Shown: positions 34,446-62,190, numbered from the stretch's first letter. The stretch: DNA of 64,000 nucleotides from an uncultured Planctomycetales bacterium (GCA_964612665.1 CAZTCI010000004.1:270376-334375), one strand, 5' to 3'. Notes: generated from the sequence alone by a model not told the origin. A program made the numbers and translations.

Positions 34446-34446
34446 T

Positions 34447-39532: not shown

Positions 39533-39536
39533 ATTT

Positions 39537-41631: not shown

Positions 41632-41654
41632 GATGAATACCCGAGATATGCAAA

Positions 41655-41739: not shown

Positions 41740-41756
41740 AATTGCACGAGCGTTTA

Positions 41757-42353: not shown

Positions 42354-42518
42354 TGCTGTTTCTCCTTGTTGTTTGTTTTTCTTGTTGCTTGCTGTTTATT
42401 TATACTGATGTCCATCAAATGATGTGATTTCAGTGCTTATTATTAACGGCGCTTTTTTTTCAGTGAAGTGTTCAACTCAAAGAATTAAAAAGACTAGCTC
42501 CCCCAAAGGAGCGTCACT

Positions 42519-43727
42519 TCACCTCAAAGCTCCGGAAATTTTAAAAATTGGCAGATACAACGCCAAAACTACAACCAATACAATCCCGCCGATAAAAATA
42601 ATCAGCGCGGGTTCCAACAAAACTGTTAAGCGGCTTAATGTATTATCAAGTTCATCATCATAATAGTCGGCGGTGCGTTTGAGCATCTCAGAGACCTTGC
42701 CGGTTTTTTCTCCGACGGCAACCATTTTTTTAACCATGCCTGAGAAAATTTTCTGCCCACGGATTTCTGAGGTCAAATCTGAACCGGCCACGACCCGTTG
42801 GCGTACATTCATAATTGCTTCGGCAAGAGGGCGATGATTGACGACCTGGGCGGTAATTTCGAGCGACGTGGATAAACCTACGCTCCCTTCGATTAGGACA
42901 CTCAATGTCCGGCAGAAACTTGAAATGCAACCTTTATAAATGACATTTTTACCGACGATGGGAATTTTGAATTTGGCATAGTCAACAGCATGGCGGAATT
43001 TAGGATTCTTTAGCGCAATCCAAAATGCGAAGAAAGCCGCCACGATTCCTAAAAGAACAATAGGGAACGCATGGATCATTGTTTCGCTTATACCGACCAC
43101 AATCCTTGTTAAAAGCGGTAATTGTCCTCCAGCGCTTTCAAACATGCTTTTAAATTTCGGAATCAAAAATAGAACAATGATAAGCACCACAGCAATGGCA
43201 AAACCAATGACGAATAACGGATAACGAAGGGCAGTGACAACTTTTTCTTTCATCCGTTCGGAATTTTCTATATATCTAGCCAGCTCGTTTGTTGTCCTGT
43301 CCAGGCGGCCGGTCGCTTCTCCCGATTTGATGATTGCGGTGTAGGTTTTTGGAAAAATCCTTGGGTATTTTAGAAGTGTCGTCGAGAAATCAGCCCCGCC
43401 GCGGATGTCTTTGGCGATTGAGAGGATGACCGTTTGAAAATATTTATTTTCCACATCTTCGGCAATTGTTTCCAAAGCATCTGTCAAAAGTAATCCCGAA
43501 GCCAAGGTTGCTGCCAGCTGGCGCGTGAAAACAACCAACTCCTTGCTTTTAACGCGGCCTGCCGTCAAAAAGCCTTTAGGCAATTGTTCTTTGTTTTGAA
43601 TGGCTTTGATTTTGATGGGCAGTAGCCCTTCTTTACTTAGACGAAAGACAACACTACTGACGTCATCAGCGTGGATTGTTCCAGTTATGTTGCGTCCATC
43701 TTTTTGGGCCGTGTATTTGAATATCAT
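42519..43727 (-). CDS. Type IV pilus / T2SS platform protein (GspF/PilC family)
   Basis: Two T2SSF domains and 3 TM segments. About 400 aa. Confidence 0.85.
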   Translation of the reverse strand: MIFKYTAQKDGRNITGTIHADDVSSVVFRLSKEGLLPIKIKAIQNKEQLPKGFLTAGRVKSKELVVFTRQLAATLASGLLLTDALETIAEDVENKYFQTVILSIAKDIRGGADFSTTLLKYPRIFPKTYTAIIKSGEATGRLDRTTNELARYIENSERMKEKVVTALRYPLFVIGFAIAVVLIIVLFLIPKFKSMFESAGGQLPLLTRIVVGISETMIHAFPIVLLGIVAAFFAFWIALKNPKFRHAVDYAKFKIPIVGKNVIYKGCISSFCRTLSVLIEGSVGLSTSLEITAQVVNHRPLAEAIMNVRQRVVAGSDLTSEIRGQKIFSGMVKKMVAVGEKTGKVSEMLKRTADYYDDELDNTLSRLTVLLEPALIIFIGGIVLVVVLALYLPIFKISGALR

Positions 43728-43736
43728 AGGCGTTCC

Positions 43737-45886: not shown

Positions 45887-45915
45887 TTGACAACATCCTC
45901 AGCGTCGATTATATT
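45887..45915 (+). promoter_or_regulatory. Near-consensus sigma70 promoter (TTGACA-17 nt-TATATT)
   Basis: -35 at 45887-45892 and -10 at 45910-45915. The ORF-track 'start codon' of the 45887 ORF is the TTG of this -35 box. Confidence 0.6.
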
Positions 45916-45925
45916 TGAAACGTCT

Positions 45926-46022
45926 TTACTGACTTTTGCACTGCAAAAGTCTAGTACTAGGCCTTTTCTCTTCGATAACGAAAAGAACGGCTTATCTTGG
46001 GAAAGGAAAAGGCCAGTAAACG
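45926..46022 (+). promoter_or_regulatory. Conserved leader/operator element, copy A. A 21-bp perfect palindrome (GACTTTTGCA-c-TGCAAAAGTC) starts 8 nt after the predicted TSS. A second helix follows (ggccttttctc...g(g/a)gaaaaggcc)
   Basis: Read from sequence. Copy B at 60676-60777 shares the first 45 bp almost identically and the closing aaaaggcca(g/a)taaa. Confidence 0.6.
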
Positions 46023-46059
46023 GTGGCGCTGAAGCCGCCAAAATTTTATCAGGCAAAGA

Positions 46060-46096
46060 GGCCCTGAACCGAAAACGGTTCGGGGTTTTTTATTTT
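46060..46096 (+). terminator. Intrinsic terminator-like hairpin (ccctgaaccg-aaaa-cggttcgggg followed by ttttttatttt) abutting the ATG of the PAS-LuxR gene
   Basis: 9/10-bp stem and an 11-nt U-rich tract. Lies between the promoter/leader and the CDS, suggesting attenuation control. Confidence 0.55.
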
Positions 46097-46990
46097 ATGG
46101 TGAATAAAAATCCCATGGCCAGCAAATTACCTTCCCAAAATTACCAACACGATCTACTTTTATCCGACGAAGAATTCTTAAGGGATTTTTTTGAAAACTC
46201 GCCCATTGGTTTCCATGTTTTCGGACCTGATAAAATTATTCAGGCCATTAATCAAGCCGAATTGAATATGCTGGGCTATCTTCGCGAGGAAATTATTGGG
46301 CGTAAAAAATGGTCAGATCTAATCATTCCACAACAGCGCGCTCAATTTGAACAGCATTGGAAAGATATTTTAAAGGTGGGGCGGGTCATTGACCTGCGTT
46401 ATACATTGCGTACAAAAACCGGTGGGTCGATCGACGTCATGTTAAACGCCTCGGCGCGGTTTAGCCCGTCGGGAAATCTTCTGAACACCCGCGGCACGGT
46501 TTTGGAAATCAGTCATTTTAATAAAGCTTATCAGGCCTTGCAGAATTCTGTCATTTCTTTAAAACAGCAAAAACAATTGCTGGAACAGCAGAACCAAGCG
46601 CTTAATGTTCTGCTCGCCAATCTTGAGATTGAAAAACAGACGCTTAAAAACAATGTGAATGCGAATTTAGAAAAATTGATCCTGCCGCTTTTAAAGAAAC
46701 TCAAACACCGCTCCAACACGTCGGATGAACAGTATCTAGAACTTTTAGAAAAGAATTTTTTAGGGCTCACATCCGGTTTCGGCCATAAGCTGCTTAATCC
46801 GCGCTGGAAACTCAGCCCGCGGGAAATTGAAATCTGTAATATGATCAAAAGCGGACTGTCAACCAAGGCGATCGCCGATACACTATGCGTCTCGGAACGG
46901 ACGATCGAGCATCACCGTAATCATATCCGTAAAAAACTGGCGTTAACGAAAAATCGGATGAACTTGGTTAGTTATTTGCAATCTTTATAG
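46097..46990 (+). CDS. PAS-domain transcriptional regulator with C-terminal LuxR/FixJ-type HTH
   Basis: PAS-like N-terminal region (FFENSPIGFHVFGPD..). C-terminal LSPREIEICNMIKSGLSTKAIADTLCVSERTIEHHRNHIRKKL. The 5' extension to 45887 is rejected. Confidence 0.6.
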   Translation: MVNKNPMASKLPSQNYQHDLLLSDEEFLRDFFENSPIGFHVFGPDKIIQAINQAELNMLGYLREEIIGRKKWSDLIIPQQRAQFEQHWKDILKVGRVIDLRYTLRTKTGGSIDVMLNASARFSPSGNLLNTRGTVLEISHFNKAYQALQNSVISLKQQKQLLEQQNQALNVLLANLEIEKQTLKNNVNANLEKLILPLLKKLKHRSNTSDEQYLELLEKNFLGLTSGFGHKLLNPRWKLSPREIEICNMIKSGLSTKAIADTLCVSERTIEHHRNHIRKKLALTKNRMNLVSYLQSL

Positions 46991-47179: not shown

Positions 47180-47375
47180 TTGACGACAAACGCGGATGAA
47201 ATATACTTAGACCGCTAATAGATTTTAAGGTAAGCGCAGACGGTTACCTTAAGTAAGTTTCGGTGAAGAAACATTTTGGACAATGAAGCCCAATATCCCT
47301 CGAGGGGGAAATTGGGGTTTTTGTTTATGGGCAATGAAGCCTTGAACCACGTTTGGTTCAGGGCTTTTTGTTTTT
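47180..47375 (+). promoter_or_regulatory. nirB leader: sigma70-like promoter (TTGACG-16-TATACT, 47180-47207), a 9-bp perfect hairpin (47225-47252), then an intrinsic terminator (47338-47375) about 125 nt before nirB
   Basis: Read from sequence. The terminator stem is agccttgaacc/ggttcagggct plus ttttgttttt. A GC-rich nested-palindrome tract (47420-47460) follows. Confidence 0.45.
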
Positions 47376-47498
47376 ACATCACCCCGCTACTCCGCTGCTT
47401 CCTTGCTAACTACAAGAGCGTGATACCCGCGGGGGGATTGATCCACCCCCGGCGGGTGGGGTGATTTTAGGAAAATGACATTTGAATTGGGAGTGAGA

Positions 47499-49991
47499 AT
47501 GAAAAAATTAGTTGTCATCGGAAACGGCATGGCGGGGGCGCGCGTGGTTGAAGAAATTTTGGGACGGGCGCCGGATAAGTTTGAAATCGTTATGTTCGGC
47601 GCTGAACCTTACGGCAATTATAACCGTATCCTGCTCAGTAACGTGTTGAATCAAACTCAAGAGCCCGACGACATTTTTATTAATCCTTTAAGCTGGTATA
47701 AAGAAAACCGCATTACCCTGCACGCGGGCGTGAAAGCGGTCAAGATTGATACCGAACGCCGTGTGGTTATTGGTCGTCCACTTCAGCCGCGCGCCGCGGC
47801 CTATGCGGTACATGATGACAATGCTTTTGTCTTTGAGAAGATTGAGGAACCTTATGACTATCTTATTATCGCGACGGGTTCCCGGCCTTTTGTTCCGCCG
47901 ATGGAAGGATTTTCCGGACAAGGAACATTTTTGTTTAGGACAATTGACGATTGTGAACGCATCGCCTCTTACGCGAAAAATTGCCGCAAAGCGGTTGTGA
48001 TCGGCGGCGGATTGTTGGGGCTGGAAGCTGCCCGGGGGTTAATGACCCATCATGTGGACGTAGCAATTGTGGAAGCTGCCGCGCAGTTAATGCCGGCTCA
48101 GTTAGATGTCGAATCCGCGCAGATTTTAAGACGCACTATGGAGGGTATGGGATTAACGATCTTGACCGACCGTAAGACGGCGCGCATTCATAAAGTGGAT
48201 AGTAAGATTCATTCATTGATTTTTGCCGACGGATCAACGCTGCCTGCCGATATGGTCGTGGTCAGCGCTGGCATCCGTCCGATTACTGAGGTGGCTCAAG
48301 ATTCAGGCTTAAAAATCAACAAAGGCATTGTGTGCAACGATCAAATGCAGACGAGTGATCCAAACATTTTTGCGGTCGGCGAATGCGTTGAACACCGCGG
48401 CAAATTATACGGATTGGTTGAACCGATTTGGGAGCAGGCGCGGATGATTGCGGATATCTTAAGTGACTTTAATCCTAAAGCAGCTTATCAGGGTTCGAAG
48501 ACCGGGACCAAATTAAAAGTGATGGGCGTTGATTTAATTTCTTTAGGTGAAAAAGAACCGGGAATGGATAGCGACGAGGTTGTGGTGTATCGCGAACCCA
48601 ATCGTGGCATTTATAAAAAGTTAATCATCCGCGACAATAAATTGTACGGCGCGATTCTGCTTGGTGATGCCGCCGCGTCGGATGCATTAATACAGATGTT
48701 TCTTAATGAACAAGTTGTTCCAGAAAATCGTTCCAATCTCTTGTTCGGCGAAGTTAAAGGAACCGCGTTTGTTGAAGCGGCGGATTTGCCGGACCACGCG
48801 CAGATCTGCAATTGTAACGGTGTTTCAAAAAGTAAAATTCTAAACGCGATCGACAGCGGCTGCGAGACTGTCGCCAGCGTCGGGGCCAGGACCAAGGCTG
48901 GTAAAGGCTGCGGATCATGCCGTGATTTAATCGCCCAGATCATTGAATCAAAATTAGGCAAGGTAGCTTACGATCCAAGCGAGCATTATTACGCGCCTGG
49001 AATTCCTTTGGAAAAATCACAATTGGTCGCGGAAATAAAAGCGAAAAATTTGAAATCGGTCAGCGCTGTTTTTCAAGCTTTGGCCGATGGAAAAGAAGAC
49101 CCGGACAGCAAAACTGGACTGGCGTCTTTATTAAAAACGATTTGGCCGAAAGATTATGAAGACGAACGCGACGCGCGTTTTATTAACGACCGCGTGCATG
49201 CGAATATTCAAAAAGACGGGACGTATTCGGTTGTGCCCCGGATCTACGGCGGTGTCACAACGCCCGATGAGTTAATGCGCATCGCCCAGGCCGCGGTCAA
49301 ATACAAAGTCAAGATGGTCAAAATCACCGGCGGGCAGCGGATTGATTTGCTCGGTATCAAAAAAGCGGATTTACCTTCCATTTGGAAAGAACTCGGGATG
49401 CCAAGCGGCCACGCGTACACAAAAGCGTTTCGCACCTGCAAAAGTTGCGTGGGCACAGATTTTTGCCGCTATGGTTTGGGCGATTCAATCAGCCTCGCCC
49501 AGAAAATCGAATACCGTTTTCAAGGGATTGAATCCCCGCACAAAATGAAATTAGCGACGGCCGGTTGTCCGCGCAATTGTTCAGAAGCTTATGTCAAGGA
49601 CATCGGGGCGGTCGCGATCGGCGATGATAAATGGGAAATTTATATTGGCGGTGCCGCAGGTAGTTCGGTGCGCAAAGGCGATCTTCTTTACACGGCGACC
49701 GGTCATGACGAAACATTGAAGATCGTCGGGCGGTTCATTCAATACTACCGTGAACATGGAAAATATTTGGAGCGCACTTACGCGTTTGCGGAACGGATCG
49801 GGATCAATGTTTTAAAAAGTATTCTGATCGAGGATTCTTTAGGAATCTGCGGTCAATTGGATGAACGCATTCAAGAAGCGGTTGATGCTTATAAAGATCC
49901 ATGGAAAGAAGCCGAGCTGCCGTTTTATCCGTCTCAGTTTGAAGGGCCGCAATTAGTCGAAGTTCTTAAGGAAGCTGAAAATAATGGTTAA
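47499..49991 (+). CDS. nirB: Assimilatory NAD(P)H nitrite reductase large subunit
   Basis: N-terminal FAD/NAD fold (KKLVVIGNGMAG). Central BFD-like [2Fe-2S] Cys pairs. C-terminal siroheme/[4Fe-4S] motifs (TCKSCVGTDFC...AGCPRNC). The ATG at 47499 with a GGAG Shine-Dalgarno is preferred. The ORF-track start is 47475. Confidence 0.85.
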   Translation: MKKLVVIGNGMAGARVVEEILGRAPDKFEIVMFGAEPYGNYNRILLSNVLNQTQEPDDIFINPLSWYKENRITLHAGVKAVKIDTERRVVIGRPLQPRAAAYAVHDDNAFVFEKIEEPYDYLIIATGSRPFVPPMEGFSGQGTFLFRTIDDCERIASYAKNCRKAVVIGGGLLGLEAARGLMTHHVDVAIVEAAAQLMPAQLDVESAQILRRTMEGMGLTILTDRKTARIHKVDSKIHSLIFADGSTLPADMVVVSAGIRPITEVAQDSGLKINKGIVCNDQMQTSDPNIFAVGECVEHRGKLYGLVEPIWEQARMIADILSDFNPKAAYQGSKTGTKLKVMGVDLISLGEKEPGMDSDEVVVYREPNRGIYKKLIIRDNKLYGAILLGDAAASDALIQMFLNEQVVPENRSNLLFGEVKGTAFVEAADLPDHAQICNCNGVSKSKILNAIDSGCETVASVGARTKAGKGCGSCRDLIAQIIESKLGKVAYDPSEHYYAPGIPLEKSQLVAEIKAKNLKSVSAVFQALADGKEDPDSKTGLASLLKTIWPKDYEDERDARFINDRVHANIQKDGTYSVVPRIYGGVTTPDELMRIAQAAVKYKVKMVKITGGQRIDLLGIKKADLPSIWKELGMPSGHAYTKAFRTCKSCVGTDFCRYGLGDSISLAQKIEYRFQGIESPHKMKLATAGCPRNCSEAYVKDIGAVAIGDDKWEIYIGGAAGSSVRKGDLLYTATGHDETLKIVGRFIQYYREHGKYLERTYAFAERIGINVLKSILIEDSLGICGQLDERIQEAVDAYKDPWKEAELPFYPSQFEGPQLVEVLKEAENNG

Positions 49992-50013
49992 CTTCTTTCA
50001 AAAGGGATGAGCC

Positions 50014-50391
50014 ATGGAAAAAATTTTACAAATCAATTTGGGCGCGGTGGGACAAATTCCTCTTGGCCAAGGACGTTGTTATGTGGTCAACGGCCATGAT
50101 ATCGCGGTATTCTGCAGCCGTAACCGTAAATTTTTTGCCGTTGAGAATCGTTGTCCGCACCGCGGCGGCCCTTTATCCGACGGAGTAATAGGTGAAGACC
50201 GGGTGGTCTGTCCATTGCATGGCCATAAATTTGATTTAACAACTGGTAAAGGCAGTGAACCGCATGAATGTATTCAAGTATTTCGCGTGCGTGAAGAAAA
50301 TGGTGATCTTTGGATCGAGTACCCAATGTCGCTTTTAAATTTTTCATCTCAGTCTAAAGCTGATATTACAGATTTGATGAAAGAAAATTAA
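50014..50391 (+). CDS. nirD: Nitrite reductase small subunit (Rieske-type)
   Basis: CPHRGGPLSDG...CPLHGHKFDLTTG Rieske motifs. 125 aa. Confidence 0.8.
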   Translation: MEKILQINLGAVGQIPLGQGRCYVVNGHDIAVFCSRNRKFFAVENRCPHRGGPLSDGVIGEDRVVCPLHGHKFDLTTGKGSEPHECIQVFRVREENGDLWIEYPMSLLNFSSQSKADITDLMKEN

Positions 50392-50423
50392 TTCCAAGAA
50401 CAAGCCCTGGGTTATCCAGCGAA

Positions 50424-51815
50424 TTGAACTACAGGCAAAAACGAAGGGGGTTGGTCATGCGCAGATTGTTGACAAGATGTTTGATACCGACGAAATTTTG
50501 GTTTTATGTGATGGTGGTTGGAAGTTTGCTGTGCGGGTCTATCATTCAAAGCCATGCAGCGAATTTGGAAAAGGATGAACTGACCATAGGGTTCATCAAG
50601 CTCGCTGATTGTGTCCCGTTAGTGGTGGCTAAGGAAAAAGGTTTTTTTGAAGAAGAAGGCCTTTTTGTCACGCTTCAACCCCAGGCGAATTGGAAAGTTT
50701 TGATGGACCGGGTCATTGACGGCCAGCTCGACGGAGCGCACATGTTAGCTGCCGCGCCGTTGGGCCACACGATCGGTCTTTTAACTAAAGCTCATATCAT
50801 TATTCCCTATGTGTTAAGTGTCAACGGCGCTGGTATCACGGTTTCGAATGAGGTCTGGCAAAAAATGAAACCGCATGTGAAACAAGAAGACGGCAAGCCC
50901 GTTCATCCGATTAGTGCTGAAGCTTTGAAACCAGTCGTCGATGAATTTAAAGGAGAAGGAAAAAGTTTTAAGATGGCGATCACTTATCCCATCGGAACGC
51001 ACAATTATGTGGAAAGGTATTGGCTGGCCGCCGGCGGTATTAATCCGGGTATGTATACGGCAACAGATAGTTCGGGGATGACGGATGCCGATGTTCAACT
51101 TTCCGTAACGCCGCCGCCGCAGATGGCGGCGACCCTTGAGTCGGGCACGATTCATGGTTTTTGCGTCGGAGAGCCATGGAACCAGCAATGCGTTTTTAAA
51201 GGAATTGGTGTCCCGGTCACCTCAAGTTATTTTGTGAACCGGGGAATCCCGGATAAAGCTTTTGGTGTCACTAAACAATGGGCGGATGAACACCCGAACA
51301 CGCTTAAAGCTTTAGTAAAAGCGCTCATTCGCGCCGGTCAATGGCTCGACGAAGATAACGGCAAAAACCGTGATGAAGCCGCGAACCTTTTGTCCAAACC
51401 CGAATACGTCGGCGCTGATTATAAAGTCATTCGGCAAATGATGACGGGTAATTTCGAATATGAAAAAGGTGATAAACGCTCTGAACCGGATTGGGATTTG
51501 TTTTTCCGGGACAATGCTTCCTATCCTTTTTACAGCGGTGCGATTTGGTATTTAACTCAAATGCGTCGCTGGGGGCAAATCGCGGAGCCCAAGCCGGATA
51601 AATGGTACGACGACACGGCAAAAAAAGTTTACCGGCCCGACATTTGGCTGGCCGCGGCCCAAGAATTGGTGAAGGAAAAAAAGTTAAGCGAAGCCGATAT
51701 TCCTCAAACCGAAGGCTACAAAGCCCCGGCTTCAGAATTTATCGACGGGTTTACTTATGACGGGCGTAAACCTAATGAATATCTTAAGAATTTTAAAATC
51801 GGTAATAACAATTAA
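50424..51815 (+). CDS. nrtA: Nitrate ABC transporter substrate-binding protein (NrtA/CmpA family)
   Basis: Signal peptide plus an NMT1/NrtA-like periplasmic domain. Operon with the permease and two ATPases. Confidence 0.75.
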   Translation: MNYRQKRRGLVMRRLLTRCLIPTKFWFYVMVVGSLLCGSIIQSHAANLEKDELTIGFIKLADCVPLVVAKEKGFFEEEGLFVTLQPQANWKVLMDRVIDGQLDGAHMLAAAPLGHTIGLLTKAHIIIPYVLSVNGAGITVSNEVWQKMKPHVKQEDGKPVHPISAEALKPVVDEFKGEGKSFKMAITYPIGTHNYVERYWLAAGGINPGMYTATDSSGMTDADVQLSVTPPPQMAATLESGTIHGFCVGEPWNQQCVFKGIGVPVTSSYFVNRGIPDKAFGVTKQWADEHPNTLKALVKALIRAGQWLDEDNGKNRDEAANLLSKPEYVGADYKVIRQMMTGNFEYEKGDKRSEPDWDLFFRDNASYPFYSGAIWYLTQMRRWGQIAEPKPDKWYDDTAKKVYRPDIWLAAAQELVKEKKLSEADIPQTEGYKAPASEFIDGFTYDGRKPNEYLKNFKIGNNN

Positions 51816-51837
51816 ACAAGCTAATTAAGGAAACACA

Positions 51838-52851
51838 ATGTTATTAAAAAAGCAAATTTTAAAAAATTCCAAAGGGCAGGTATCCATAAGTTCAGCCCAG
51901 GCTTTTTCCGGAGGAATAAATAAAGATCTGCGTTTCTTTTTAAAATCTTTATGGCTAACGCTGGGCATTCCTTTTATAGCGATTGCTATTTTTTTAATGA
52001 TCTGGTCGGCGACCGCGCAGAACATTCATACAAGTTTAGGGAGCCTGCCTGGTCCGCGTGATGTTTTTGCTCAGGCCAAAACATTGTGGCAGGAACACTG
52101 GCAGGAACAGGAGAAGCAGAAAGAATTTTATCAAAAACAAAAAGACGCGAACGCCAAAAAATTAGCGGAAGACCCGACGGCAAAAGTCAAAATCCGCAAG
52201 TATACAGGCAAGCCGACATACTTTGATCAAATCTTAAGAAGCTTGCTCACTGTTTTCACCGGATTTTTGATCGCCTCGGCCGTTGCTATTCCGCTGGGCA
52301 TTGTCTGCGGACTTAACCGCACAATACTGGCGGCGTTGAATCCTTTTATTCAGATCTTTCGTCCAATCTCACCGCTGGCGTGGCTGCCTTTGGTGACCAT
52401 GGTTGTGAGCGCGGTCTATACAACCTCGAACGGACCGGTTGAAAAATGTTTTATTATTTCGGCAGTTACAGTTTCATTGTGTTCATTGTGGCCGACGCTG
52501 ATTAATACGGCGCAAGGTGTCGCGTCGGTAGATAAGGATATCGTGAATGTCTCACGCGTTCTTCGCTTGGGGCCGATGACGCATGTTTTAAAAATTATTT
52601 TGCCCGCTTCACTGCCTTTGGTCTTTACGGGTTTACGCATTTCACTTGGCGTCGGATGGATGGTTTTGATCGCTTCCGAAATGCTCGCGCAAAATCCAGG
52701 TTTGGGAAAATTTGTTTGGGATGAATTTCAAAACGGCAGCAGTGAATCGCTGGCGCGGATAATGGTCGCGGTTTTAACGATCGGGCTCATCGGTTTTGTT
52801 TTGGACCGCGTTATGGTCCTTCTGCAGAAGACGGCAAGCTTTAATAGATAA
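51838..52851 (+). CDS. nrtB: Nitrate ABC transporter permease
   Basis: BPD-transport permease with the EAA-like loop ([16 protein letters not shown]). Confidence 0.8.
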
Positions 52852-52861
52852 GGAGAGAGCG

Positions 52862-53725
52862 TTGGCTTTTTTAGAGTTAATTGAGGTCGATAAAGGATAC
52901 GGCGAAGGCAACAGCCGCAGTGAGGTTTTAAAAGGCATCAATCTTACCGTCGAGAAAGGCGAGTTTGTCGCGATTATCGGTTTTTCCGGAAGCGGAAAAA
53001 CGACTTTGATTAATTTGATCGGCGGGCTTTTGAAAGCGGATGACGGCATTGTTTTATTGCGGGGGAAACATATCGAAAAACCCGGCCCAGACCGCGGGAT
53101 GGTTTTTCAAAATTATTCTTTATTGCCGTGGCTCAGTGTTTACGGCAACATCGCGCTCGCCGTGAATAATCTGTTCCCGCAGTGGTCGAAGGAAAAACGC
53201 GACGAACATATCCGCCGTTACATTGACATGGTGCATTTGACGCCGGCGTTAGATAAAAAACCGATGGAACTTTCCGGCGGGATGCGCCAGCGCGTTTCGG
53301 TCGCCCGGGCACTCGCCATGGACCCGGAGATTCTTCTTTTAGATGAACCGTTAAGCGCGCTGGATGCTTTAACCCGCGGCACACTTCAAAAAGAAATTGA
53401 AACGATTTATCGCACCGAGAAAAAAACTGTTGTCTTGATTACCAATGATGTGGATGAAGGGTTGATATTAGCGGACCGGATTATCCCGCTTAATCCCGGT
53501 CCTCGCGCGACGTTAGGCCCTATCTTTTCAATTGATCTGCCACGTCCTCGAGATAAAGCGGCCATGAATCACAATCCTCAATATAAAAAATTACGTAACG
53601 CGATCATTGAATATCTTCTCGACGTTGGATCGAAACGAAACGTCAAGAACAATGAGATAGACTCTTTGACTCTGCCGGATCTGAACCCGATCGATGTGCG
53701 CCAGAGCCGGTATGTGAATGTATAA
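52862..53725 (+). CDS. nrtD: Nitrate ABC transporter ATP-binding protein
   Basis: Walker [10 protein letters not shown], signature LSGGMRQRV and Walker B LLLDEP. A TTG at 52862 with an AAGGAGAG Shine-Dalgarno is preferred over the ORF-track start at 52796, which lies inside nrtB. Confidence 0.8.
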
Positions 53726-53736
53726 AGAAAGGAACC

Positions 53737-54603
53737 ATGAACGATTATCTGGAATTTGCGAATCTTTCCAAAGAATACACGACGGCAAAAGGCAATTTTG
53801 TCGCTGTTGAGGGATTTCATCTTAATGTGAGCAAAGGCGAATTTGTTTCCATTATTGGTCATTCCGGATGCGGCAAATCAACCGTGCTCATGATGGCTGC
53901 CGGATTAATTGAAATCACTTCCGGCTATATTTGTTTAGCCACCCGAGAAATCGACGGGCCGGGGCCGGACCGTGGGATTGTGTTTCAATCGCCAAGTTTG
54001 TTGCCGTGGATGACGGCGCTTGAGAATGTAATGTTAGGTGTTAAACAAGTTTTTCCCCATGGAACGCAAAAGCAGCGTGAAGATATTTGTAAATACTATC
54101 TGACCCGCGTCGGGCTTGGCGACGCGTTTTATAAAAAAGCCTGCGATCTTTCTAACGGCATGAGACAACGCGTCGGTATCGCCCGGGCTTTCGCGCTTAA
54201 ACCCAAGCTGCTTCTTTTGGATGAACCGTTTGGAATGCTCGATTCGTTGACAAGGGCCGAATTGCAGGAAGTATTGCTGGAAGTCTGGAGCCGCGAACAG
54301 ATAACGGCCTTGATGGTTACTCACGACGTGGATGAAGCGTTGTTTCTTTCGGACCGCATTGTGATGATGACGAGCGGTCCCCGCGCGAAAGTTGGGAAAA
54401 TTTTGAATGTCGATTTTGAAAGGCCGCGTCACCGCAAAGATGTGATTGAACATCCACGCTATTACGACTGTCGCGGATCTTTATTGAACTTTTTAGAAGG
54501 AAGGGAATCTGAGGTCACTCACAAAGGCCAGACAAAGACGTCAGAGCCGCAGGCCCTTCGGCTCAAGACAGAACCAAAGAAGGATTATGTCAACGCCTCC
54601 TGA
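53737..54603 (+). CDS. nrtC: Nitrate ABC transporter ATP-binding protein (second ATPase)
   Basis: Walker [10 protein letters not shown], signature LSNGMRQRV and Walker B LLLDEP. Confidence 0.8.
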
Positions 54604-54681
54604 GATATCCTCTCACATCGCCACACAATGGAACGACATCTAAAAATAAAGCGTGAATAATGCGAGAAATGGAATCTCTCT

Positions 54682-56019
54682 ATGACTAATCGAAAATCTT
54701 TGATGGCGGTTTTGGCTGTTTTATTGATGGGAACGGTCAGCGAAGCTGGCGACTGGATTAATAAAAAATTACCCGATGCGATTAAAGCGGATCTTCAGGT
54801 ACGTTATCGCCTGGAGTATCGCAGTGACTTTGATTTCAATGAAAGCAAGGACGACAACGACGCTTATAATCTTTATCGCACACGTTTGAATTTAAAGTTT
54901 ACACCCATCAAACAATTGTATCTGTTCACGCAAGCGCAGGACGCGCGAATCACACATTCGCAATTCATTGATAAATCCCCGTATGAAAATTTTATGGATA
55001 CCCGCCAGCTATATCTTAATTACGAAGATGAAGTGCAGTTTGAACCCTTGTCGATGAATAAAGTTTCACTTCGTGCGGGGCGTCAGGAATTTGCTTATGG
55101 TGCGGAACGGTTGATCGGCGGATTTAACTGGTCGAATGTGGCGCAAACGTTCGACGGCGGGAAAATCGGTTTTCATTTTATTCCACTGCATTTGCAAGTC
55201 GATTTTTTCGGCGGCGATAAAACTTCGATTAAATCCCCGCGGGAAGCGGACGATCTTTTTGACGGTTCATCCAAAGACAGGATGTACGCGTATTACGCGA
55301 CGGCCAAACCGTATAAAGATTTGATTGTGGAAAATTATTTAATCCGCCGTAAGACCGGCAAAAACATTTCCTTTGGTCCCAGCGGATCAGGGGCCGTCGA
55401 TGAGTTTACTTTTGGCGGGCGGCTTTTGAAGCCTGCTTCGTCGGGTCATTTTGATTATGAATTAGAAACCGCCGGGCAATGGGGCGATTTCAATGACAAG
55501 GATGTCCGCGCGGCGATGGCGGTCGGAATTATTGGCTATACGATTAAGCACCGTTTTGCGCCGCGTTTTGCTTTTGAGTATGATTACGGCACGGGTGATT
55601 CCAACCCAACGGATGGAACCCGCCGGACATTTGACAATCTTTATCCGACAAACCATCCGTTTTATGGATTCATGGATTTGTTCAGCATTCAAAACCTGAA
55701 TGATTACCGGTATCAAGCGAGTTTCAAGCCGCATAGTAAATGGAAATTGCAGTCAGATTATCATTTGTTGTTTTTAGACACGCCGAAAGATTCGTTTTAT
55801 TCCGCCGGACGGGCCGTGACCCGGACAGCGTCGGCGTCGCTTTCGGATGTCAATCCGCACGTCGGTGATGAAGTCGATTTAACGGCCGAATATAAAGCAA
55901 CGCCATGGCTCAATATGTTGTTTGGCTATTCGCATTTTTTTGCCGGTAAATATTTGCAAGAAACCGGCGCCAATGATGACGCGGACTTCTTTTATCTACA
56001 AACTCAGTTTACCTTATGA
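54682..56019 (+). CDS. Outer-membrane porin (alginate-export/OprO-P-like family often linked to anion uptake loci)
   Basis: Signal peptide (..VSEA). About 420-aa beta-rich protein with alternating patterns and an aromatic-rich C-terminus (FFYLQTQFTL). Sits inside the nitrate gene cluster. Confidence 0.5.
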   Translation: MTNRKSLMAVLAVLLMGTVSEAGDWINKKLPDAIKADLQVRYRLEYRSDFDFNESKDDNDAYNLYRTRLNLKFTPIKQLYLFTQAQDARITHSQFIDKSPYENFMDTRQLYLNYEDEVQFEPLSMNKVSLRAGRQEFAYGAERLIGGFNWSNVAQTFDGGKIGFHFIPLHLQVDFFGGDKTSIKSPREADDLFDGSSKDRMYAYYATAKPYKDLIVENYLIRRKTGKNISFGPSGSGAVDEFTFGGRLLKPASSGHFDYELETAGQWGDFNDKDVRAAMAVGIIGYTIKHRFAPRFAFEYDYGTGDSNPTDGTRRTFDNLYPTNHPFYGFMDLFSIQNLNDYRYQASFKPHSKWKLQSDYHLLFLDTPKDSFYSAGRAVTRTASASLSDVNPHVGDEVDLTAEYKATPWLNMLFGYSHFFAGKYLQETGANDDADFFYLQTQFTL

Positions 56020-56028
56020 CGCTAAGTG

Positions 56029-56066
56029 ACCCATCTACACCTACGGGGTGTAGATGGGTAAGTTTT
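56029..56066 (+). terminator. Intrinsic terminator: perfect 13-bp stem (acccatctacacc-tacgg-ggtgtagatgggt) followed by aagttttt
   Basis: Arms at 56029-56041 and 56047-56059 are exact reverse complements. Confidence 0.7.
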
Positions 56067-56076
56067 TAAATAACTT

Positions 56077-57702
56077 ATGGATAGAAAATTGAATGAACAT
56101 AATTTTCTTGAGGGAACAGATCTCACGGCGGTCGAGAAATTTTCGTTGCAGCATGACTTCCGTCAGATTTCTAAGGGCGATAGTCTTTACGAAGATCTTA
56201 TTCCTAAAACAACACCCGGCGACGGAGAACAATACGCTTTTAATGTTGATCTCGACAAATGCACCGGCTGTAAAGCGTGCGTGGCGGGCTGTCACAGTGA
56301 AAATGGTTTAGAAGACGATGAGATTTGGCGGTCGGTTGGGATCATTCACACCATCGAGGAAACGAAGCCCGTCATTCAACATATCACCAGTGCCTGCCAT
56401 CATTGTCTGGACCCGGCCTGTTTGGAAGGCTGCCCCGTTGATGCTTATGAAAAAAATCCGAAAACCGGCGTCGTCAAACATCTGGATGACCAATGTATCG
56501 GCTGTCAGTACTGCACTTTCAAATGTCCTTACGATGTTCCGAAATACAATAAGAAAAAAGGCATCGTCCATAAATGTGACATGTGCATCAGCCGTTTAGA
56601 AGTCGGCCAAGCCCCAGCCTGCGTGCGCGCGTGTCCTAACGGCGCCATCACAATCAAAATTATTAACCAAGCACAAGTGCGCGAGAATCCGACGGCGTAT
56701 GTCAATATTCCGCGGGCGCCGGATTCAAACTACACTCTTCCTACAACCCAATACCAGACCACAAAAACCTTAAGCGCCAGCATGGTCACTGGAGATTTTA
56801 ATAAAGTGCATTTGGAACATTCGCATTGGCCGCTTATTGTGATGCTCGTCTTGACCCAGCTTTCCGTCGGGACTTTGGGGTTTAGTCTTTTGGCGCAAAT
56901 GTTTTTGCCGTTTGATTGCCAGATGACTTTTTATCCATACCATGCGCTGGTGGGATTGGGCGCGGGGATTTTGGCTTTGATCGTGAGTGTTTTTCATCTC
57001 GGCCGGCCGTTGTATGCGTTTCGGGCGGTTATTGGATTGGGACATTCCTGGTTGAGCCGGGAGATTGTGACCTTCGGCGCGTTCGCTTTTTTAGCGATCG
57101 TATTGACCTTGCGTTTGTGGATTCATCATGATTTAGAAAATGTTGTGAATATTCTAGCGGCGGCAACGGTACTCGTCGGAATTTTCGGTGTTTTTTGTTC
57201 GGTTAAAGTTTATCGGGACACGCGCCGGCCGTTTTGGGACCATCCGGTTACCGACGTGAAATTCTTTCTAACGACGACCATTTTAGGCACGGCGACGGTT
57301 TTATGTTCGAGTTTGATTTATTCGGAACTATCCGCGCTTCAAATCATGAAATGGTTCGGCGTCAGATTTTGTTGGATCATTGCGACTTGTTCCTGTGCCA
57401 AAATGATTTTAGAAGCATCCTTTTTTAAATATTTATACGATCCACAACAAACCCTTTTAAAAAAATCCGCCTGGATCATGACCGAGCCTCTAAAAAATGT
57501 GACAAGGAATCGTTTTGGATGGGGAATTGTGGGTGGAATTATTTTACCCGTGGTTTGCGCCACGCAATTTATGTCTTGGAATCTTTTGGGAATCCTTTCT
57601 TGCAGTTTATTGATTTTAATCTTATCGCTCATCGCGGAATTTTGTGAACGTTATTTATTCTTCCGTTCGGTTGTGGCCTTAAAGATGCCGGGAGGGCTTT
57701 GA
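56077..57702 (+). CDS. Fusion of a 4Fe-4S ferredoxin-type subunit (DmsB/NrfC-like, 4 Cys clusters) with a polytopic NrfD/DmsC-like membrane anchor
   Basis: [41 protein letters not shown] and CDMCISRL...CVRACP. About 8 TM helices from residue 240. The stop overlaps the start of the molybdoenzyme gene. Confidence 0.65.
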
Positions 57703-59903
57703 TGAAATCTTCCAATAATATTTGGATGCAAAAAAACGGGCCGCTTTCCGACGAGCTGGCGCTGGATCTCGTTTCTGAAGATTTAGGAAAACTGCCGCGC
57801 CGGTTAATCCCGGATAAAATTATTAACAGCGTCTGCGGTTTTTGTTCAACGGGATGCAGTTTATCCGTTCATATGAAAGGAAACCAGCCGGTCAATTTAA
57901 CGCCGAACCGAAATTATCCGGTTAACTTAGGCGAGGCGTGCCCGAAGGGGTGGGAATCGTTGACGCCTTTAAAAGCATCAGACCGCGCAACAACGCCGTA
58001 TCTTCGCGATAAAAACGGTCGCTTCATCAAAGTGAATTGGGACACCGCTTTAAGTTTTTTTGTAAGCCGGTTTAAAGCAATTCAACAGAAATACGGACCA
58101 GAGAGTCTGGCTTTCTTGAGTACGGGACAAATTTGTACCGAGGAGATGGCGTTTCTGGGAGCTCTGGCTAAATTTGGGATGGGCATTCTTCATGGCGACG
58201 GGAACACCCGTCAATGTATGGCCACCTCCGTCGTGAGTTACAAAGAGGCCTTCGGATTTGACGCGCCGCCTTTTACCTATCAGGATTTTGAAGAGTCCGA
58301 CTGCGTTATTTTTATCGGCGCCAATCCCTGCATTGCGCATCCGATCATGTGGCAGCGGGTGTGCCGTAATAAAAATGAACCGCTTATTATCGTCGTCGAT
58401 CCGCGCAAAACCGAGACCGCCATGGCCGCCACCCATCATTATGCGATTCAGCCTAAAAGCGATTTAGTTTTATTATATGGGCTGGCCTATATTTTGATTA
58501 AGAAAGGTTGGGTTGATGAAACTTACATCAAGAATCATACGCAGGGATTCGAGGCCTTTCGGCAACATGTACGTGTGTTCACCCCGATGTTTGTTTCTAG
58601 ACAGACTGGTTTATCCAAAGAAGACCTCTGCGATTTTGCGGCGATGATCCATTATGGCCGTCGGGTGTCGTTTTGGTGGACGATGGGCGTTAATCAAAGT
58701 TATGAAGGCGTGCGGACCGCGCAGGCGATTATTAATTTATGTTTAATGACCGGGAACATCGGACGTCCAGGCACCGGACCCAACTCGATTACCGGCCAAT
58801 GTAATGCGATGGGGTCGAGATTGTTCAGCAACACGACGAATCTTTTGGGCGGTCATAGTTTCTTAAAAGAAGCTGATCGACGTAAGATCGCGCAGATTTT
58901 AGGCATCGATGTTAATTTGATTCCAACGCAAGAGAGCTTAGCTTATGATCAAATTATTGACCAAATAGCTGTTGGCAAAATTAAAGGGCTGTGGGTCATT
59001 GCCACCAATCCCGCGCATTCGTGGATTGATCAAAAAGAAGTGAGAGGGATCTTGGGTAATTTAGATTTTCTGGTCGTTCAGGATATGTACACGACAACGC
59101 AGACCGCGAAGATGGCGGATTTGATTCTTCCAGCGGCGGGGTGGGGTGAAAAGGAAGGCACGGTGATTAATTCCGAACGGCGGATTGGATTGTTCAGAAA
59201 GGCCGCTCGCCCGCCGGGCGATGCCTTGAGTGATTTTGAAATTTTTAAATTGATCGCCCAGTACTGGGGATGCTCAGGGCTTTTTAAAGAATGGAATACA
59301 CCCGAGGATGTTTTTCAAAGCATGAAAAAAATTTCCAGAGGCACACCTTGCGATATCACCGGAATCAAAAATTACGCAATGTTAGAAGAGTACGGCGGTA
59401 TTCAATGGCCGTTTCCTGAAGGTGAACGCTTAAAAGACAATCAGCGGCGGCTTTTCGAAGACGGAAAATTCTTTCATGACAATAAAAAGGCACGCTTCAT
59501 TTTTGAAGATCCCAAGGAAAATCCAGAAAAACCTGATCACAAATATCCATTTATTCTTTTAACCGGCCGCGGGACATCAGCTCAGTGGCACACGCAAACG
59601 CGCACGGAAAAATCTCCGGTGCTGCGGACGATGTATCCGCCGGAAGTTTATGTGGAAGTCAATCCCAACGATGCTCAGGCGCTTGCGTTACATGATCAAC
59701 AATGGATTTATGTGACTTCTCGTCGGGCACAGATTAAAGCCCGGGCTTTTGTTGTGCCGTCAGTTCAACCAGGACAAGTGTTTATCCCGATGCATTATGA
59801 AGAAACCAACCGGCTGACGTTTTCGCTGGTTGATCCTTATTCAAGACAGCCGTCGTATAAAATATGTGCGGTGCAATTGTCGGTGAAGCCGTATTATCCA
59901 TAA
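57699..59903 (+). CDS. nasA: Molybdopterin (bis-MGD) oxidoreductase, assimilatory nitrate reductase-like catalytic subunit, no Tat signal
   Basis: N-terminal [4Fe-4S] motif [11 protein letters not shown]...C. About 730 aa with typical MopB-superfamily spacing. No RR twin-arginine motif, so it is cytoplasmic. Nitrate-assimilation context. Confidence 0.75.
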
Positions 59904-59941
59904 ATTTGAAGGGTCACCAAGTCACCCGTCACAAAGTCACC

Positions 59942-60430
59942 ATGATACAGAACAATCCAGAAGTTCTTGCTGTTTGCACTTCCAATGGAGGAATTCCGAA
60001 AATTCCTCGAGCCTTCGCTTACGTCTTTAAAACCGGTTTGGCCGGTGACGGACATAATCATGATAAACACAAAACACCATTACAGGCGGTTTGTTTACAG
60101 GATGTTGAATTTTTGGAAGAGTTAATGCGAGAGGGTTTTCCTTTGACCTTGGGAACAATTGGGGAAAATGTCACGGTGCGGGATTTATTCGTCCAGAAAC
60201 TTCCGATTGGAACGGTTCTCGAATTTTCCGGCGGCGTTGTCATTGAATTAACAAAAGTTCGCAAACCGTGTTATGTGTTAGATGCCATTGACCCAAAATT
60301 AAAAGAAGTGATTATGGGACGCTGTGGTTATTATGCCAGAGTGATTCGTGAAGGTGTCATTAAGCCGGGCGACAAAATTATTTTACATAAAGAGTGTTGT
60401 TCAAATTTAAGTTATGTCCATGTAATTTAA
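59942..60430 (+). CDS. MOSC-domain protein (YiiM/YcbX-like)
   Basis: GENVTVRDL...GGVVIELTKVRKPCYVLD...GVIKPGDKIIL is the MOSC beta-barrel signature with the conserved Cys. The ATG at 59942 is preferred over the ORF-track start at 59864, which lies inside nasA. Confidence 0.6.
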   Translation: MIQNNPEVLAVCTSNGGIPKIPRAFAYVFKTGLAGDGHNHDKHKTPLQAVCLQDVEFLEELMREGFPLTLGTIGENVTVRDLFVQKLPIGTVLEFSGGVVIELTKVRKPCYVLDAIDPKLKEVIMGRCGYYARVIREGVIKPGDKIILHKECCSNLSYVHVI

Positions 60431-60777: not shown

Positions 60778-60955
60778 GAGGTTTTCGCTTCTAAGCGCTT
60801 GAACGGTTTTAATCACCCGTTCATTCTCACCAACCCGATGAGAAAAATTTGTGAAGAAAACTAAAAACAGTTGAAGTTCATGGTCATGAAATTGTATGAT
60901 GGAAGTCCTCATTGTTATTGTTTGATTGTTTTGTAAATTGAGAAAGGAGTTTGTT

Positions 60956-61537
60956 ATGGCCGAGCCAAAAATTGTTGCGTTTGCCGGAAGCACGCGGACG
61001 GATTCTTACAATAAGAAACTCATCAGAGTAGCCGTTGAAGCGGCTAAGAACGCGGGAGCGGAAGTCACGCTTATTGATTTGCGGGATATTCCAATGCCGC
61101 TTTACGACGGAGATCTTGAAAAAGAGAAGGGACTGCCAGATAACGCCAAGAAATTTAAGAAGCTCTTGATTGAACATCCAGGTTTTCTTATTTCAACGCC
61201 GGAATACAATAGTTCCATTCCGGGTGTTTTAAAGAATGCGATTGATTGGGCATCACGGGCGGAAAAACCAGATGAACCGCCGCTGGTTTGTTTTGCCAAC
61301 AAAGTCGTTGGACTCATGTCTGCTTCTCCCGGTGGATTAGGCGGTTTGCGGAGTTTAACTCATGTCCGCGCCATTTTAGAAAACATCGGCGCACTTGTGA
61401 TCCCGCAACAGATCGCCATCTCTAAAGCCCACGAAGCTTTTGACGCTAACGGGAAGCTCAAGGATGCTAAACAGCAAAGCGCCGTCGAGAATGTTAGCAA
61501 ACGACTGGTTCAAATTTTAACTAAACTTTCACAATAA
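60956..61537 (+). CDS. NAD(P)H-dependent FMN reductase (SsuE/flavodoxin-like fold)
   Basis: KIVAFAGSTRTDSYNKKL...ISTPEYNSSIPGVLKNAIDW. ATG at 60956 with an AAGGAG Shine-Dalgarno. Confidence 0.75.
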   Translation: MAEPKIVAFAGSTRTDSYNKKLIRVAVEAAKNAGAEVTLIDLRDIPMPLYDGDLEKEKGLPDNAKKFKKLLIEHPGFLISTPEYNSSIPGVLKNAIDWASRAEKPDEPPLVCFANKVVGLMSASPGGLGGLRSLTHVRAILENIGALVIPQQIAISKAHEAFDANGKLKDAKQQSAVENVSKRLVQILTKLSQ

Positions 61538-61557
61538 ATTTTTCAAAGGAAACAAAT

Positions 61558-62190
61558 ATGATTTTAAGAAAATTATTGTCAAAATTCAGTTGGGCAGCGG
61601 TTATCCTTTTGACATTGATTGCTAGCTGGACCAGCAATGGTTTTGCCGAAGTGCCGCACTTGGAGACCGCCACATTTGCAGGTGGATGTTTTTGGTGCAT
61701 GGAGCCGTTTTTGGCACATCTTAAAGGTGTTAAAAGCGTGACCGTCGGCTATACTGGCGGTCAAAAAGCCAATCCCACGTATGAAGAAGTTTCCAGCGGC
61801 ACAACCGGCCACGCCGAATCGATTCAAGTTGTTTTTGATCCAACCATCATTTCTTATGCACGTCTTTTAAAAATTTATTGGCACAATATTGATCCAACCA
61901 TGGTTAATGGCCAATTCGCTGATCAAGGCACACAATATCGCACGGCAATTTTTTATCGTAACGACGAGCAAAAGCGTTTGGCTGAAGAATCGAAGAAAGA
62001 ACTCGCAGCCTCTGGCAAATTTGACAGAGCCATTGTGACGGAAATTGTGCCCGCTTCAACGTTTTATCCCGCGGAAGATTATCATCAGCACTATTATAAA
62101 ACGCATGCTTTACAATATAATCTGTATCACGCCGCGTCGGGACGCGATCAATTTTTAAAGCGTATTTGGGGTAATGAAAAGCCTGAATAG
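61558..62190 (+). CDS. msrA: Peptide methionine sulfoxide reductase MsrA, secreted/periplasmic form
   Basis: Signal peptide, then the active site ATFAGGCFWCME. Confidence 0.85.
   Translation: MILRKLLSKFSWAAVILLTLIASWTSNGFAEVPHLETATFAGGCFWCMEPFLAHLKGVKSVTVGYTGGQKANPTYEEVSSGTTGHAESIQVVFDPTIISYARLLKIYWHNIDPTMVNGQFADQGTQYRTAIFYRNDEQKRLAEESKKELAASGKFDRAIVTEIVPASTFYPAEDYHQHYYKTHALQYNLYHAASGRDQFLKRIWGNEKPE

Follow-up and report, generated by a model that had tools for sequence, protein, structure and literature searches.

We describe a gene pair in a 64,000-nucleotide (nt) stretch of chromosome from an uncultured Planctomycetales bacterium (GCA_964612665.1 CAZTCI010000004.1:270376-334375; hereafter the window, with positions counted from its first letter). 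The pair lies within a nitrate-assimilation gene cluster at 47475-60430, and encodes an iron-sulfur (FeS) protein fused to a DmsC/NrfD-like membrane anchor, followed by a molybdoenzyme of the MopB superfamily that groups with assimilatory nitrate reductases (Nas). Our evidence is computational throughout, comprising profile, alignment, tree, structure-prediction and synteny work, and it suggests that the two proteins probably act together as a cytoplasm-facing, membrane-bound quinol:nitrate oxidoreductase serving assimilation. A first-pass annotation of the window had inferred a membrane-associated, quinol-linked cytoplasmic nitrate reductase at this position; the conserved quinol site, the predicted topology facing the cytoplasmic (N) side, and the Nas-type catalytic subunit described below all support that inference.

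The fused iron-sulfur/membrane subunit and its catalytic partner

The two genes, together with the two halves of the fusion, are located as follows:

56077..57702, + strand: FeS/DmsC fusion, 541 amino acids (aa); Fer4_11 and DmsC PF04976 (60 bits vs 22)
56077..56793, + strand: N-terminal half of the fusion, aa 1-239; conserved 50-aa leader, then a DmsB-type four-cluster ferredoxin
56794..57702, + strand: C-terminal half of the fusion, aa 240-541; DmsC/NrfD-like domain with eight transmembrane (TM) helices, N-in/C-in; PF04976
57702..59903, + strand: MopB enzyme, 733 aa; Molybdop_Fe4S4 PF04879, Molybdopterin PF00384, and Molydop_binding PF01568, all over cutoffs

The fusion is a DmsB-DmsC (NrfD-like) module made as a single polypeptide. 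Its N-terminal half contains 16 cysteines in four motifs (residues 62-72, 107-119, 140-150, and 167-186), enough for four [4Fe-4S] clusters, and all 16 are invariant in an alignment of 52 fusion homologues with identities down to 47%. It shares 35% identity with E. coli DmsB, and has as its best NCBIfam match TIGR02951 DMSO_dmsB (126 bits, under the cutoff of 214); in Foldseek searches it matches the four-cluster subunits FdnH, ArrB, and PsrB (TM-score 0.74) of complex iron-sulfur molybdoenzymes (CISM), and NarH weakly. The C-terminal half aligns with E. coli DmsC over TM1-5 at 29% identity (BLASTP), matches ActC and PsrC in Foldseek, and by itself retrieves 154 clusters (50% identity) at E < 1e-30 and 988 at E < 1e-10. 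An AlphaFold2 model of the fusion, built on the 52-sequence alignment, has a predicted local distance difference test score (pLDDT) of 85.4 and a predicted template-modelling score (pTM) of 0.84, and contains eight long helices (251-274, 279-307, 325-349, 354-380, 390-415, 420-454, 473-500, and 503-530), in agreement with hydropathy. The 16 cysteines and the eight helices bear out the first-pass description of a four-cluster ferredoxin fused to an 8-TM NrfD/DmsC anchor, and the DmsB/DmsC-type character of the two domains bears out the likeness that it drew to respiratory CISM modules.

The fusion and its catalytic partner are predicted to lie on the same side of the membrane. No twin-arginine (Tat) motif or hydrophobic signal-like stretch precedes the first cluster in any of the 52 fusion homologues, and the linked MopB proteins, described earlier as having no Tat signal, are likewise without an RR motif or a hydrophobic region; three NapA proteins, included as controls, scored positive in this test. 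With the FeS domain placed inside, the predicted cytoplasmic loops carry a mean of 9.5 Lys+Arg residues, versus 0.8 for the predicted periplasmic loops. The lack of a Tat/Sec signal and this strong positive-inside bias together predict a cytoplasmic FeS domain, with no topological mismatch to the signal-less catalytic subunit.

The anchor carries the residues of a known quinol site. In DmsC, this site comprises Ser62, His65, Ser82, and Glu87, and mutational work shows that menaquinol oxidation requires His65 and Glu87 (PMC8076601). A BLASTP alignment to E. coli DmsC pairs S62, H65, S82, and E87 with fusion residues S304, H307, S324, and E329, respectively; the 52 homologues all share H307, S324, and E329, and conserve S304 at 90% or more. 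In the AlphaFold2 model, taken with the N-in topology, the four residues are located where TM2 ends and TM3 begins, on the cytoplasmic face, beside the FeS domain. The modelled geometry of the quinol site relative to the FeS domain would be that of DmsABC, with the whole module flipped. The quinol link had been proposed earlier on other grounds, and the conservation of these four residues at the cytoplasmic face provides support that the earlier proposal did not have. The alignment further shows conserved charged residues in TM5-8 (K442, E446, R479, E521, and R525), which leave room, speculatively, for a proton path coupled to the reaction, as has been discussed for NrfD-like subunits.

The MopB enzyme carries an FS0 cluster motif, C-x2-C-x3-C-x27-C (C45, C48, C52, and C80, read from the translation), and two active-site stretches that distinguish it from formate dehydrogenases. 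Specifically, the Mo ligand is C172 in R-Q-C-M-A-T (R-L-C-M-A-S in NapA; U/C-H in formate dehydrogenases), and the second stretch is I-T-G-Q-C-N-A-M-G (L-T-G-Q-P-N-A-C-G in NapA; L-R-G-Q-N-N-V-Q-G in Fdh). Both patterns are the same as those of five annotated Nas sequences, and differ from those of four Fdh/YdeP sequences. In a tblastn comparison with annotated plasmid genes, identities are highest for Nas (31-34%), followed by fdhF (27-30%) and napA (27%); the NCBIfam narG profile gives only 35 bits.

A neighbour-joining tree (24 sequences, 680 columns, 300 bootstraps; a distance method, with moderate support) gives the same picture. The FeS/DmsC-linked MopB enzymes form a clade of their own with 100% support, a Cetobacterium protein is sister to this clade at 100%, and the two together join the five annotated Nas proteins at 85%; the split between Nas plus Nap and Fdh/YdeP is also at 85%, and E. 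coli DmsA is a distant outgroup. The grouping with Nas rather than with formate dehydrogenases, together with the Nas/Nap motifs, agrees with the first-pass assignment of the catalytic subunit to the nitrate reductases. Because its scores fall below both NCBIfam Nas equivalog cutoffs, MopB is a distinct Nas subclade.

Raw scores alone would point elsewhere. The highest scores of MopB are to cytoplasmic formate dehydrogenases (TIGR01591, 508 bits, under its cutoff; PDB 9t1s, 7qv7, and 7bkb), the NapA of D. desulfuricans ranks after formate dehydrogenases in the PDB scores, and among 44 PDB chains that match with E <= 1e-20, none is an assimilatory nitrate reductase. These scores would suit a formate dehydrogenase, or another oxidoreductase, that stands beside nitrate genes by chance. 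Against this stand the C-M-A and Nas/Nap-type second motifs, the position with Nas in the tree, and the co-location, in about 90 loci, of genes for nitrate transport and nitrite reduction, and we regard a non-nitrate enzyme as very improbable; a formate dehydrogenase identity, in particular, was rejected on active-site motifs, tree, and gene context.

MopB residues 1-44 (57702-57833) form an N-terminal extension that canonical Nas enzymes are without. In relatives the extension is 35-54 aa long and conserved, with the consensus …G-x-L-T-x-E-L-x-L-E…L-G-L-G-K-L-P-x-R-L-x-P-D…. MAFFT sets it over the Tat-signal region of NapA; it contains no functional RR motif or hydrophobic core. The extension may be a vestigial peptide of the Tat or chaperone-binding kind found in NarG, or may serve as an arm on which the FeS subunit docks.

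The nearest annotated relative of MopB is encoded on a Cetobacterium somerae plasmid (NZ_CP092520.1, 8995-12007; 46.7% identity), and has the same C-M-A and T-G-Q-C-N-A-M-G-S motifs. This gene has no FeS/DmsC neighbour; a 307-aa hypothetical protein is encoded next to it, followed by mobB and moeA on the opposite strand. Because this relative stands without an FeS/DmsC neighbour, the fusion partner is not universal across the wider MopB subclade, and the Cetobacterium sister lineage may use a different electron donor.

Recurrence of the gene pair and the proposed source of electrons

A scan of one genome per species identified 28 close loci (29 with Kolteria novifilia), carried by Omnitrophota metagenome-assembled genomes (MAGs), MAGs labelled Planctomycetales, and one Lysobacterales MAG, the closest being 47-57% identical. 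The fusion is followed by MopB in 26/26 genome loci with enough downstream sequence, and ORF (open reading frame) clustering finds a MopB ORF in 29/29 loci, Kolteria included. The genes nearby encode nirD (20 loci), nirB (16), MOSC (16), an MFS transporter (14), a porin (11, Kolteria included), and a PAS-LuxR regulator (5), along with ABC components, amtB, PII, glutamine synthetases, and mobA. The cultured planctomycete Kolteria novifilia Pan216 carries, in this order, genes for a porin, HEM4, a NirA-like protein, the fusion, MopB (with a 4-nt overlap), and an MFS transporter.

A metagenome scan with the alignment yielded at least 600 candidate stretches, of which at least 590 were confirmed, and 80 loci (44-56% identity) were kept. 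The fusion is followed by MopB in all 61 of the kept loci that have at least 700 nt downstream. Neighbours in the 80 loci include a NirA-like sirohaem reductase (52), an MFS transporter (29), a CysJ-like flavoprotein (13), MOSC (5), and a porin (3), and the pair is kept where NirA-like and MFS proteins stand in for NirBD and NrtABCD. Besides Kolteria, at least 87 other loci, 26 genomic and 61 metagenomic, carry the pair, an adjacency beyond chance. The invariant core is the fusion/MopB pair, always in a nitrate-assimilation setting; the first-pass annotation had envisaged a three-gene module, of which the pair recurs throughout and MOSC as third gene does not. The arrangement is unusual relative to the literature, yet common in Omnitrophota- and Planctomycetota-type genomes and metagenomes.

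In 13 of the metagenome loci, a CysJ-like flavodoxin/FAD/NAD protein accompanies the NirA-like enzyme (examples from this set are L079:1480-3270 and L065:2064-3869). This combination hints at an NADPH-dependent nitrite reductase built like sulfite reductase.

From these data we infer that the two proteins form a complex, that electrons flow from quinol to nitrate in an electroneutral step, and that the complex serves assimilation. In the mechanism that we propose, the 8-TM DmsC/NrfD-like domain would oxidise menaquinol or ubiquinol at the N side, and electrons would travel along the four [4Fe-4S] clusters in the DmsB-like half to FS0, and from there to the molybdenum-bis(molybdopterin guanine dinucleotide) cofactor (Mo-bisMGD) of the Nas-type subunit. 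Nitrate would cross the outer membrane, probably through the porin, would be imported by NrtABCD, and would be reduced to nitrite by the Nas subunit; NirBD would then reduce nitrite to ammonium with NAD(P)H, for assimilation. Because both half-reactions would take place on the N side, with proton release from quinol and proton uptake by nitrate reduction on one side of the membrane, the step would be electroneutral, unlike that of NarGHI. The gain would be that reducing power is drawn via the quinone pool, for example with NADH oxidised first by proton-pumping complex I, instead of NADH being spent directly, and that no low-potential ferredoxin is involved.

The energetics would permit such a step. 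Quinol couples lie near -74 mV (menaquinone) and +100 mV (ubiquinone). Because the NO3-/NO2- couple, at about +433 mV (PMC10100899), lies far above them, the quinol-to-nitrate step would be strongly exergonic. This large driving force, together with the conserved charges in TM5-8, makes proton coupling by the NrfD-like domain conceivable.

Four points weigh against a quinol:nitrate oxidoreductase. The conserved quinol-site residues do not prove quinol turnover; NirB and NirD are encoded in the same operon, making a second or alternative donor possible; the tree is small and distance-based, with the Nas grouping at 85%, not 100%; and MopB is under both NCBIfam Nas equivalog cutoffs (NasA_Halo NF041323, 461/1000 bits; NasC NF047855, 442/1100 bits).

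The fusion could, in particular, be a mere tether or relay with an idle quinol site, the donor being soluble: either NirB/NirD, in the style of Paracoccus NasBG-NasC, or ferredoxin or flavodoxin. Paracoccus NasB and NasG, which are homologous to NirB and NirD, carry NADH electrons to NasC, and nirB and nirD stand in the same operon here. Moreover, quinol oxidation cannot be shown from sequence alone, and the characterised Nas enzymes all use NADH or ferredoxin/flavodoxin (PMC7816997). However, the four quinol-site residues are invariant or nearly so in 52 homologues with identities down to 47%, which is odd for a passive anchor; eight TM helices make an expensive tether; and the pair is kept without NirBD in Kolteria and in the 52 metagenome loci with a NirA-like enzyme. 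We consider an idle quinol site unlikely.

The same complex could also serve mainly as a dissimilatory electron sink, in nitrate respiration or in fermentative nitrate/nitrite ammonification with NirBD, where nitrate-driven quinol oxidation would keep complex I or other dehydrogenases turning under anoxia. The architecture is that of respiratory CISM enzymes, many of the relatives are Omnitrophota/Planctomycetota MAGs of low-oxygen habitats, some loci contain an MFS NarK-type transporter, and NirBD also serves dissimilatory nitrite ammonification in enterobacteria. The neighbouring genes, however, are assimilatory (high-affinity NrtABCD, amtB, PII, glutamine synthetase, and sirohaem NirA with the CysJ-like reductase), the catalytic subunit is of the Nas type rather than a NarG or NapA, and the predicted N-side quinol site would yield no redox loop. 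We give a mainly dissimilatory role a low probability, and note that dissimilatory and assimilatory roles can coexist and are not mutually exclusive. The quinol-dependent assimilatory reductase is the reading that we prefer.

The nitrate-assimilation cluster, its leaders and the remainder of the window

ORF calls identify ten genes at 47475-60430, all on the + strand and in the order given by the first-pass annotation from nirB to MOSC. The spacing between the long ORFs is -1 to 78 nt, and every long ORF in the interval is on the + strand. The tightest junction is that of the pair itself, where the fusion stop codon TGA (57700-57702) shares its A with the MopB start codon ATG (57702-57704); the overlap of stop and start that had been described there reads TGATG, and measures 1 nt. 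The other eight genes are:

47475..49991, + strand: nirB, NAD(P)H nitrite reductase large subunit; TIGR02374 (827 bits vs 578 cutoff) and Pfam domains
50014..50391, + strand: nirD, Rieske-type small subunit; TIGR02378 (75.9 bits vs 74.65 cutoff) and Rieske_2
50424..51815, + strand: nrtA-like nitrate ABC substrate-binding protein; NMT1_2 (292 bits) and synteny with nrtB and the ATPases
51838..52851, + strand: nrtB-like permease; BPD_transp_1, with top NCBIfam match TIGR01183 ntrB (164 bits, under cutoff)
52796..53725, + strand: nitrate ABC ATPase 1, NrtD-like; TIGR01184 (290.7 bits vs 291.8 cutoff)
53737..54603, + strand: nitrate ABC ATPase 2, NrtD-like; TIGR01184 (311 bits, over cutoff)
54682..56019, + strand: outer-membrane beta-barrel, Alginate_exp family; PF13372 (191 bits)
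59942..60430, + strand: MOSC protein, likelier extent of an ORF at 59864-60430; PF03473 (52.7 bits vs 22.7)

Two details of the first-pass annotation required revision. The identity of nirB stands, and its start, previously placed at 47499, is 24 nt inside the ORF that starts at 47475. The genes labelled nrtD and nrtC do encode two nitrate ABC ATPases; both, however, are NrtD-like and short, without the long C-terminal domain of NrtC, so that nrtD-nrtC is a loose label. The TTG start annotated for ATPase 1 overlaps nrtB, and the actual start may lie more downstream. The Alginate_exp barrel is presumed, from its gene context, to be a nitrate/nitrite porin.

The MOSC protein belongs with the YiiM/YcbX/mARC-like MOSC proteins, and is a stand-alone MOSC domain with an invariant C136 in R-x-P-C-Y-V-L-D, and with G-D-G-H-x-H-x-K-H and G-E-N motifs. 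Because conservation in an alignment of 14 homologues begins only near residue 31, M27 (nt 59942) is the likelier start, which would give a protein of 162 aa. Its sole PDB relative is the YiiM structure 5yhh (E = 3e-12), and its top NCBIfam match is the MoaC/MOSC fusion family. MOSC is an accessory gene, because it is present in the close, Omnitrophota-like loci (16/29) and rare in the wider set (5/80). As the first-pass annotation proposed, it may act on hydroxylamine or N-hydroxy compounds, or may aid in maturing the molybdenum cofactor. Downstream of it, after a 496-nt gap, 60926-62190 encodes an NADPH-dependent FMN reductase family protein, of a family that includes quinone reductases, and MsrA; these two genes are not conserved beside the module in related loci.

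Upstream of nirB, and between the porin and fusion genes, we identified three further features:

45887..46990, + strand: PAS + LuxR/GerE regulator; Pfam, with promoter and hairpin scan
47180..47367, + strand: nirB leader; promoter-like TTGACG-16-TATACT (47180-47207) and hairpin (47336-47367)
56029..56059, + strand: 14-bp perfect stem-loop followed by AAGTTTTTAA (weak T tract), in the 57-nt porin-fusion gap

The PAS-LuxR protein is a candidate regulator of the nitrate cluster, and its family recurs in 5/29 related loci. Judged from the sequence, translation probably begins at the in-frame ATG at 46097, downstream of a promoter-like site (45887-45915) and of a hairpin resembling a terminator (46056-46091). 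The hairpin in the nirB leader (14 bp, terminator-like, with a T run) resembles the one at 46056-46091: both are GC-rich, have stems of the form GCC(C/T)TGAACC..., are followed by T runs, and are located 3' of a sigma-70-like promoter. The nirB-leader hairpin is a possible attenuator, a function read from its form. Because the two hairpins are similar and each is downstream of a good sigma-70-like promoter, they suggest a common attenuation or antitermination control of the nitrate regulon. A comparison of the leader hairpins with Rfam matched no family, the top match having E = 0.027, far under the gathering threshold. The stem-loop at 56029-56059 is a possible partial terminator or mRNA-stabilising element, and may set differing transcript levels for the uptake and reductase genes.

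Elsewhere in the window, the release factor 2 gene (ORF 9760-10737) has a classical programmed +1 frameshift site upstream (9646-9717), in which a short ORF closes with CTT TGA C (9711-9717), with a Shine-Dalgarno-like AGGGGG ahead of it. A 977-aa ORF at 34342-37275 (+ strand), which adjoins a TPR protein, has no Pfam match at E <= 1e-5; this stretch, like 33102-34445, has a raised GC content of 0.47-0.48 and a strong positive AT skew of 0.14-0.18. A type IV pilus/type II secretion-like set is located at 38594-45425 (- strand), and includes a GspE/PilB ATPase with MshEN, GspF/PilC, N_methyl pseudopilins, and a PilX-like protein; a separate PilT-like ATPase is located at 7770-8849. The remaining genes are housekeeping genes (ComEC, MurJ, UvrC, SecA, Lnt, lipid A acyltransferase, FtsH-like protein, and enolase). 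The pilus/secretion-like set and the housekeeping genes indicate that the window is part of a diderm chromosome.

Relation to known molybdoenzymes and implications

The catalytic subunit shares with the Nas enzymes of Klebsiella, Bacillus, Paracoccus, cyanobacteria, and haloarchaea (NasA/NasC/NarB) a cytoplasmic Mo-bisMGD subunit, FS0, the C-M-A and T-G-Q-x-N-A-M-G motifs, and genetic linkage to nitrite reductase and nitrate transporter genes. It differs from them in its separate clade with 100% support, its sub-cutoff NCBIfam scores, its 44-aa extension, and its partner: the known donors are NADH, through NasC/NasB/NasG-type proteins, or ferredoxin/flavodoxin, whereas here the partner is a four-cluster FeS-DmsC protein. 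The Paracoccus denitrificans NasBGC system likewise has NirB-type and NirD/Rieske-type proteins in an operon with a Nas catalytic subunit. It has no membrane subunit, whereas the dedicated FeS/DmsC partner here is translationally coupled to the reductase.

The fusion, for its part, resembles the electron-transfer subunits of respiratory enzymes. With E. coli DmsABC it has in common a DmsB-type four-cluster protein, a DmsC-type 8-TM anchor, the quinol-site residues, and the proposed flow from quinol through FeS clusters to Mo. DmsAB, however, is Tat-exported and periplasmic, whereas here there is no Tat signal, the module is predicted to be cytoplasm-facing, B and C form a single polypeptide, and the catalytic subunit is Nas, not DmsA. 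NarGHI, which is also assimilatory in Mycobacterium tuberculosis, likewise depends on quinol, has its active site in the cytoplasm, and includes NarH, an FeS subunit with four clusters. In contrast to the present system, with no haem subunit, a predicted cytoplasmic-side quinol site, and a Cys ligand, NarGHI has a di-haem cytochrome b, NarI, with a periplasmic-side quinol site, is electrogenic, and has an Asp ligand in NarG, a member of a distant MopB family.

The closest likeness in orientation, drawn from published descriptions, is to SoeABC of Allochromatium vinosum and Aquifex aeolicus, with which the module shares its overall N-side geometry, here predicted only. A 2021 review holds SoeABC to be the only NrfD/DmsC-type complex that faces the N side, with an inverted SoeC and a quinone site at His65/Glu87 (PMC8076601). 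Soe, however, works in the opposite direction, oxidising sulfite and reducing quinone; SoeB and SoeC are separate proteins, and SoeA is of another MopB family. A tblastn search of a plasmid collection for SoeC relatives found nothing but DmsABC operons of the classical type, accompanied by TorD or DmsD chaperones.

No nitrate-assimilation complex of FeS/DmsC plus Nas type is mentioned in PMC8076601 or PMC10100899, and the literature that we searched, with most subscription papers outside its reach, contained no description of a DmsC/NrfD-like or quinol-dependent assimilatory nitrate reductase. The parts are known, as is a precedent for the N-side orientation in SoeABC; the combination, and the electron donor that it implies for assimilation, are new. 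Bacterial assimilatory nitrate reductases have been divided into two donor classes, NADH and ferredoxin/flavodoxin (PMC7816997), and a MopB phylogeny reports no member of the Nas/Nap/Aio/Fdh clade with canonical four-cluster plus anchor subunits (PMC7331816); the gene pair runs counter to both statements. We see an even chance that it represents a third electron-donor class, a quinol-dependent, membrane-bound NasA with fused DmsBC, and the second N-side NrfD/DmsC molybdoenzyme after SoeABC.

In public annotations the fusion appears as 'DMSO reductase anchor subunit', 'Anaerobic dimethyl sulfoxide reductase chain B', or 'formate dehydrogenase iron-sulfur subunit', and because of these names metabolic reconstructions of Omnitrophota and Planctomycetota MAGs likely misread it as evidence of respiratory dimethyl sulfoxide (DMSO) or formate metabolism. 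If the quinone pool feeds the enzyme, the cost of nitrate assimilation shifts, and any quinone-reducing dehydrogenase can pay it. A cultured carrier of the pair exists in Kolteria novifilia Pan216. As a second inverted NrfD-like module, the predicted complex would inform how such modules re-orient in evolution.

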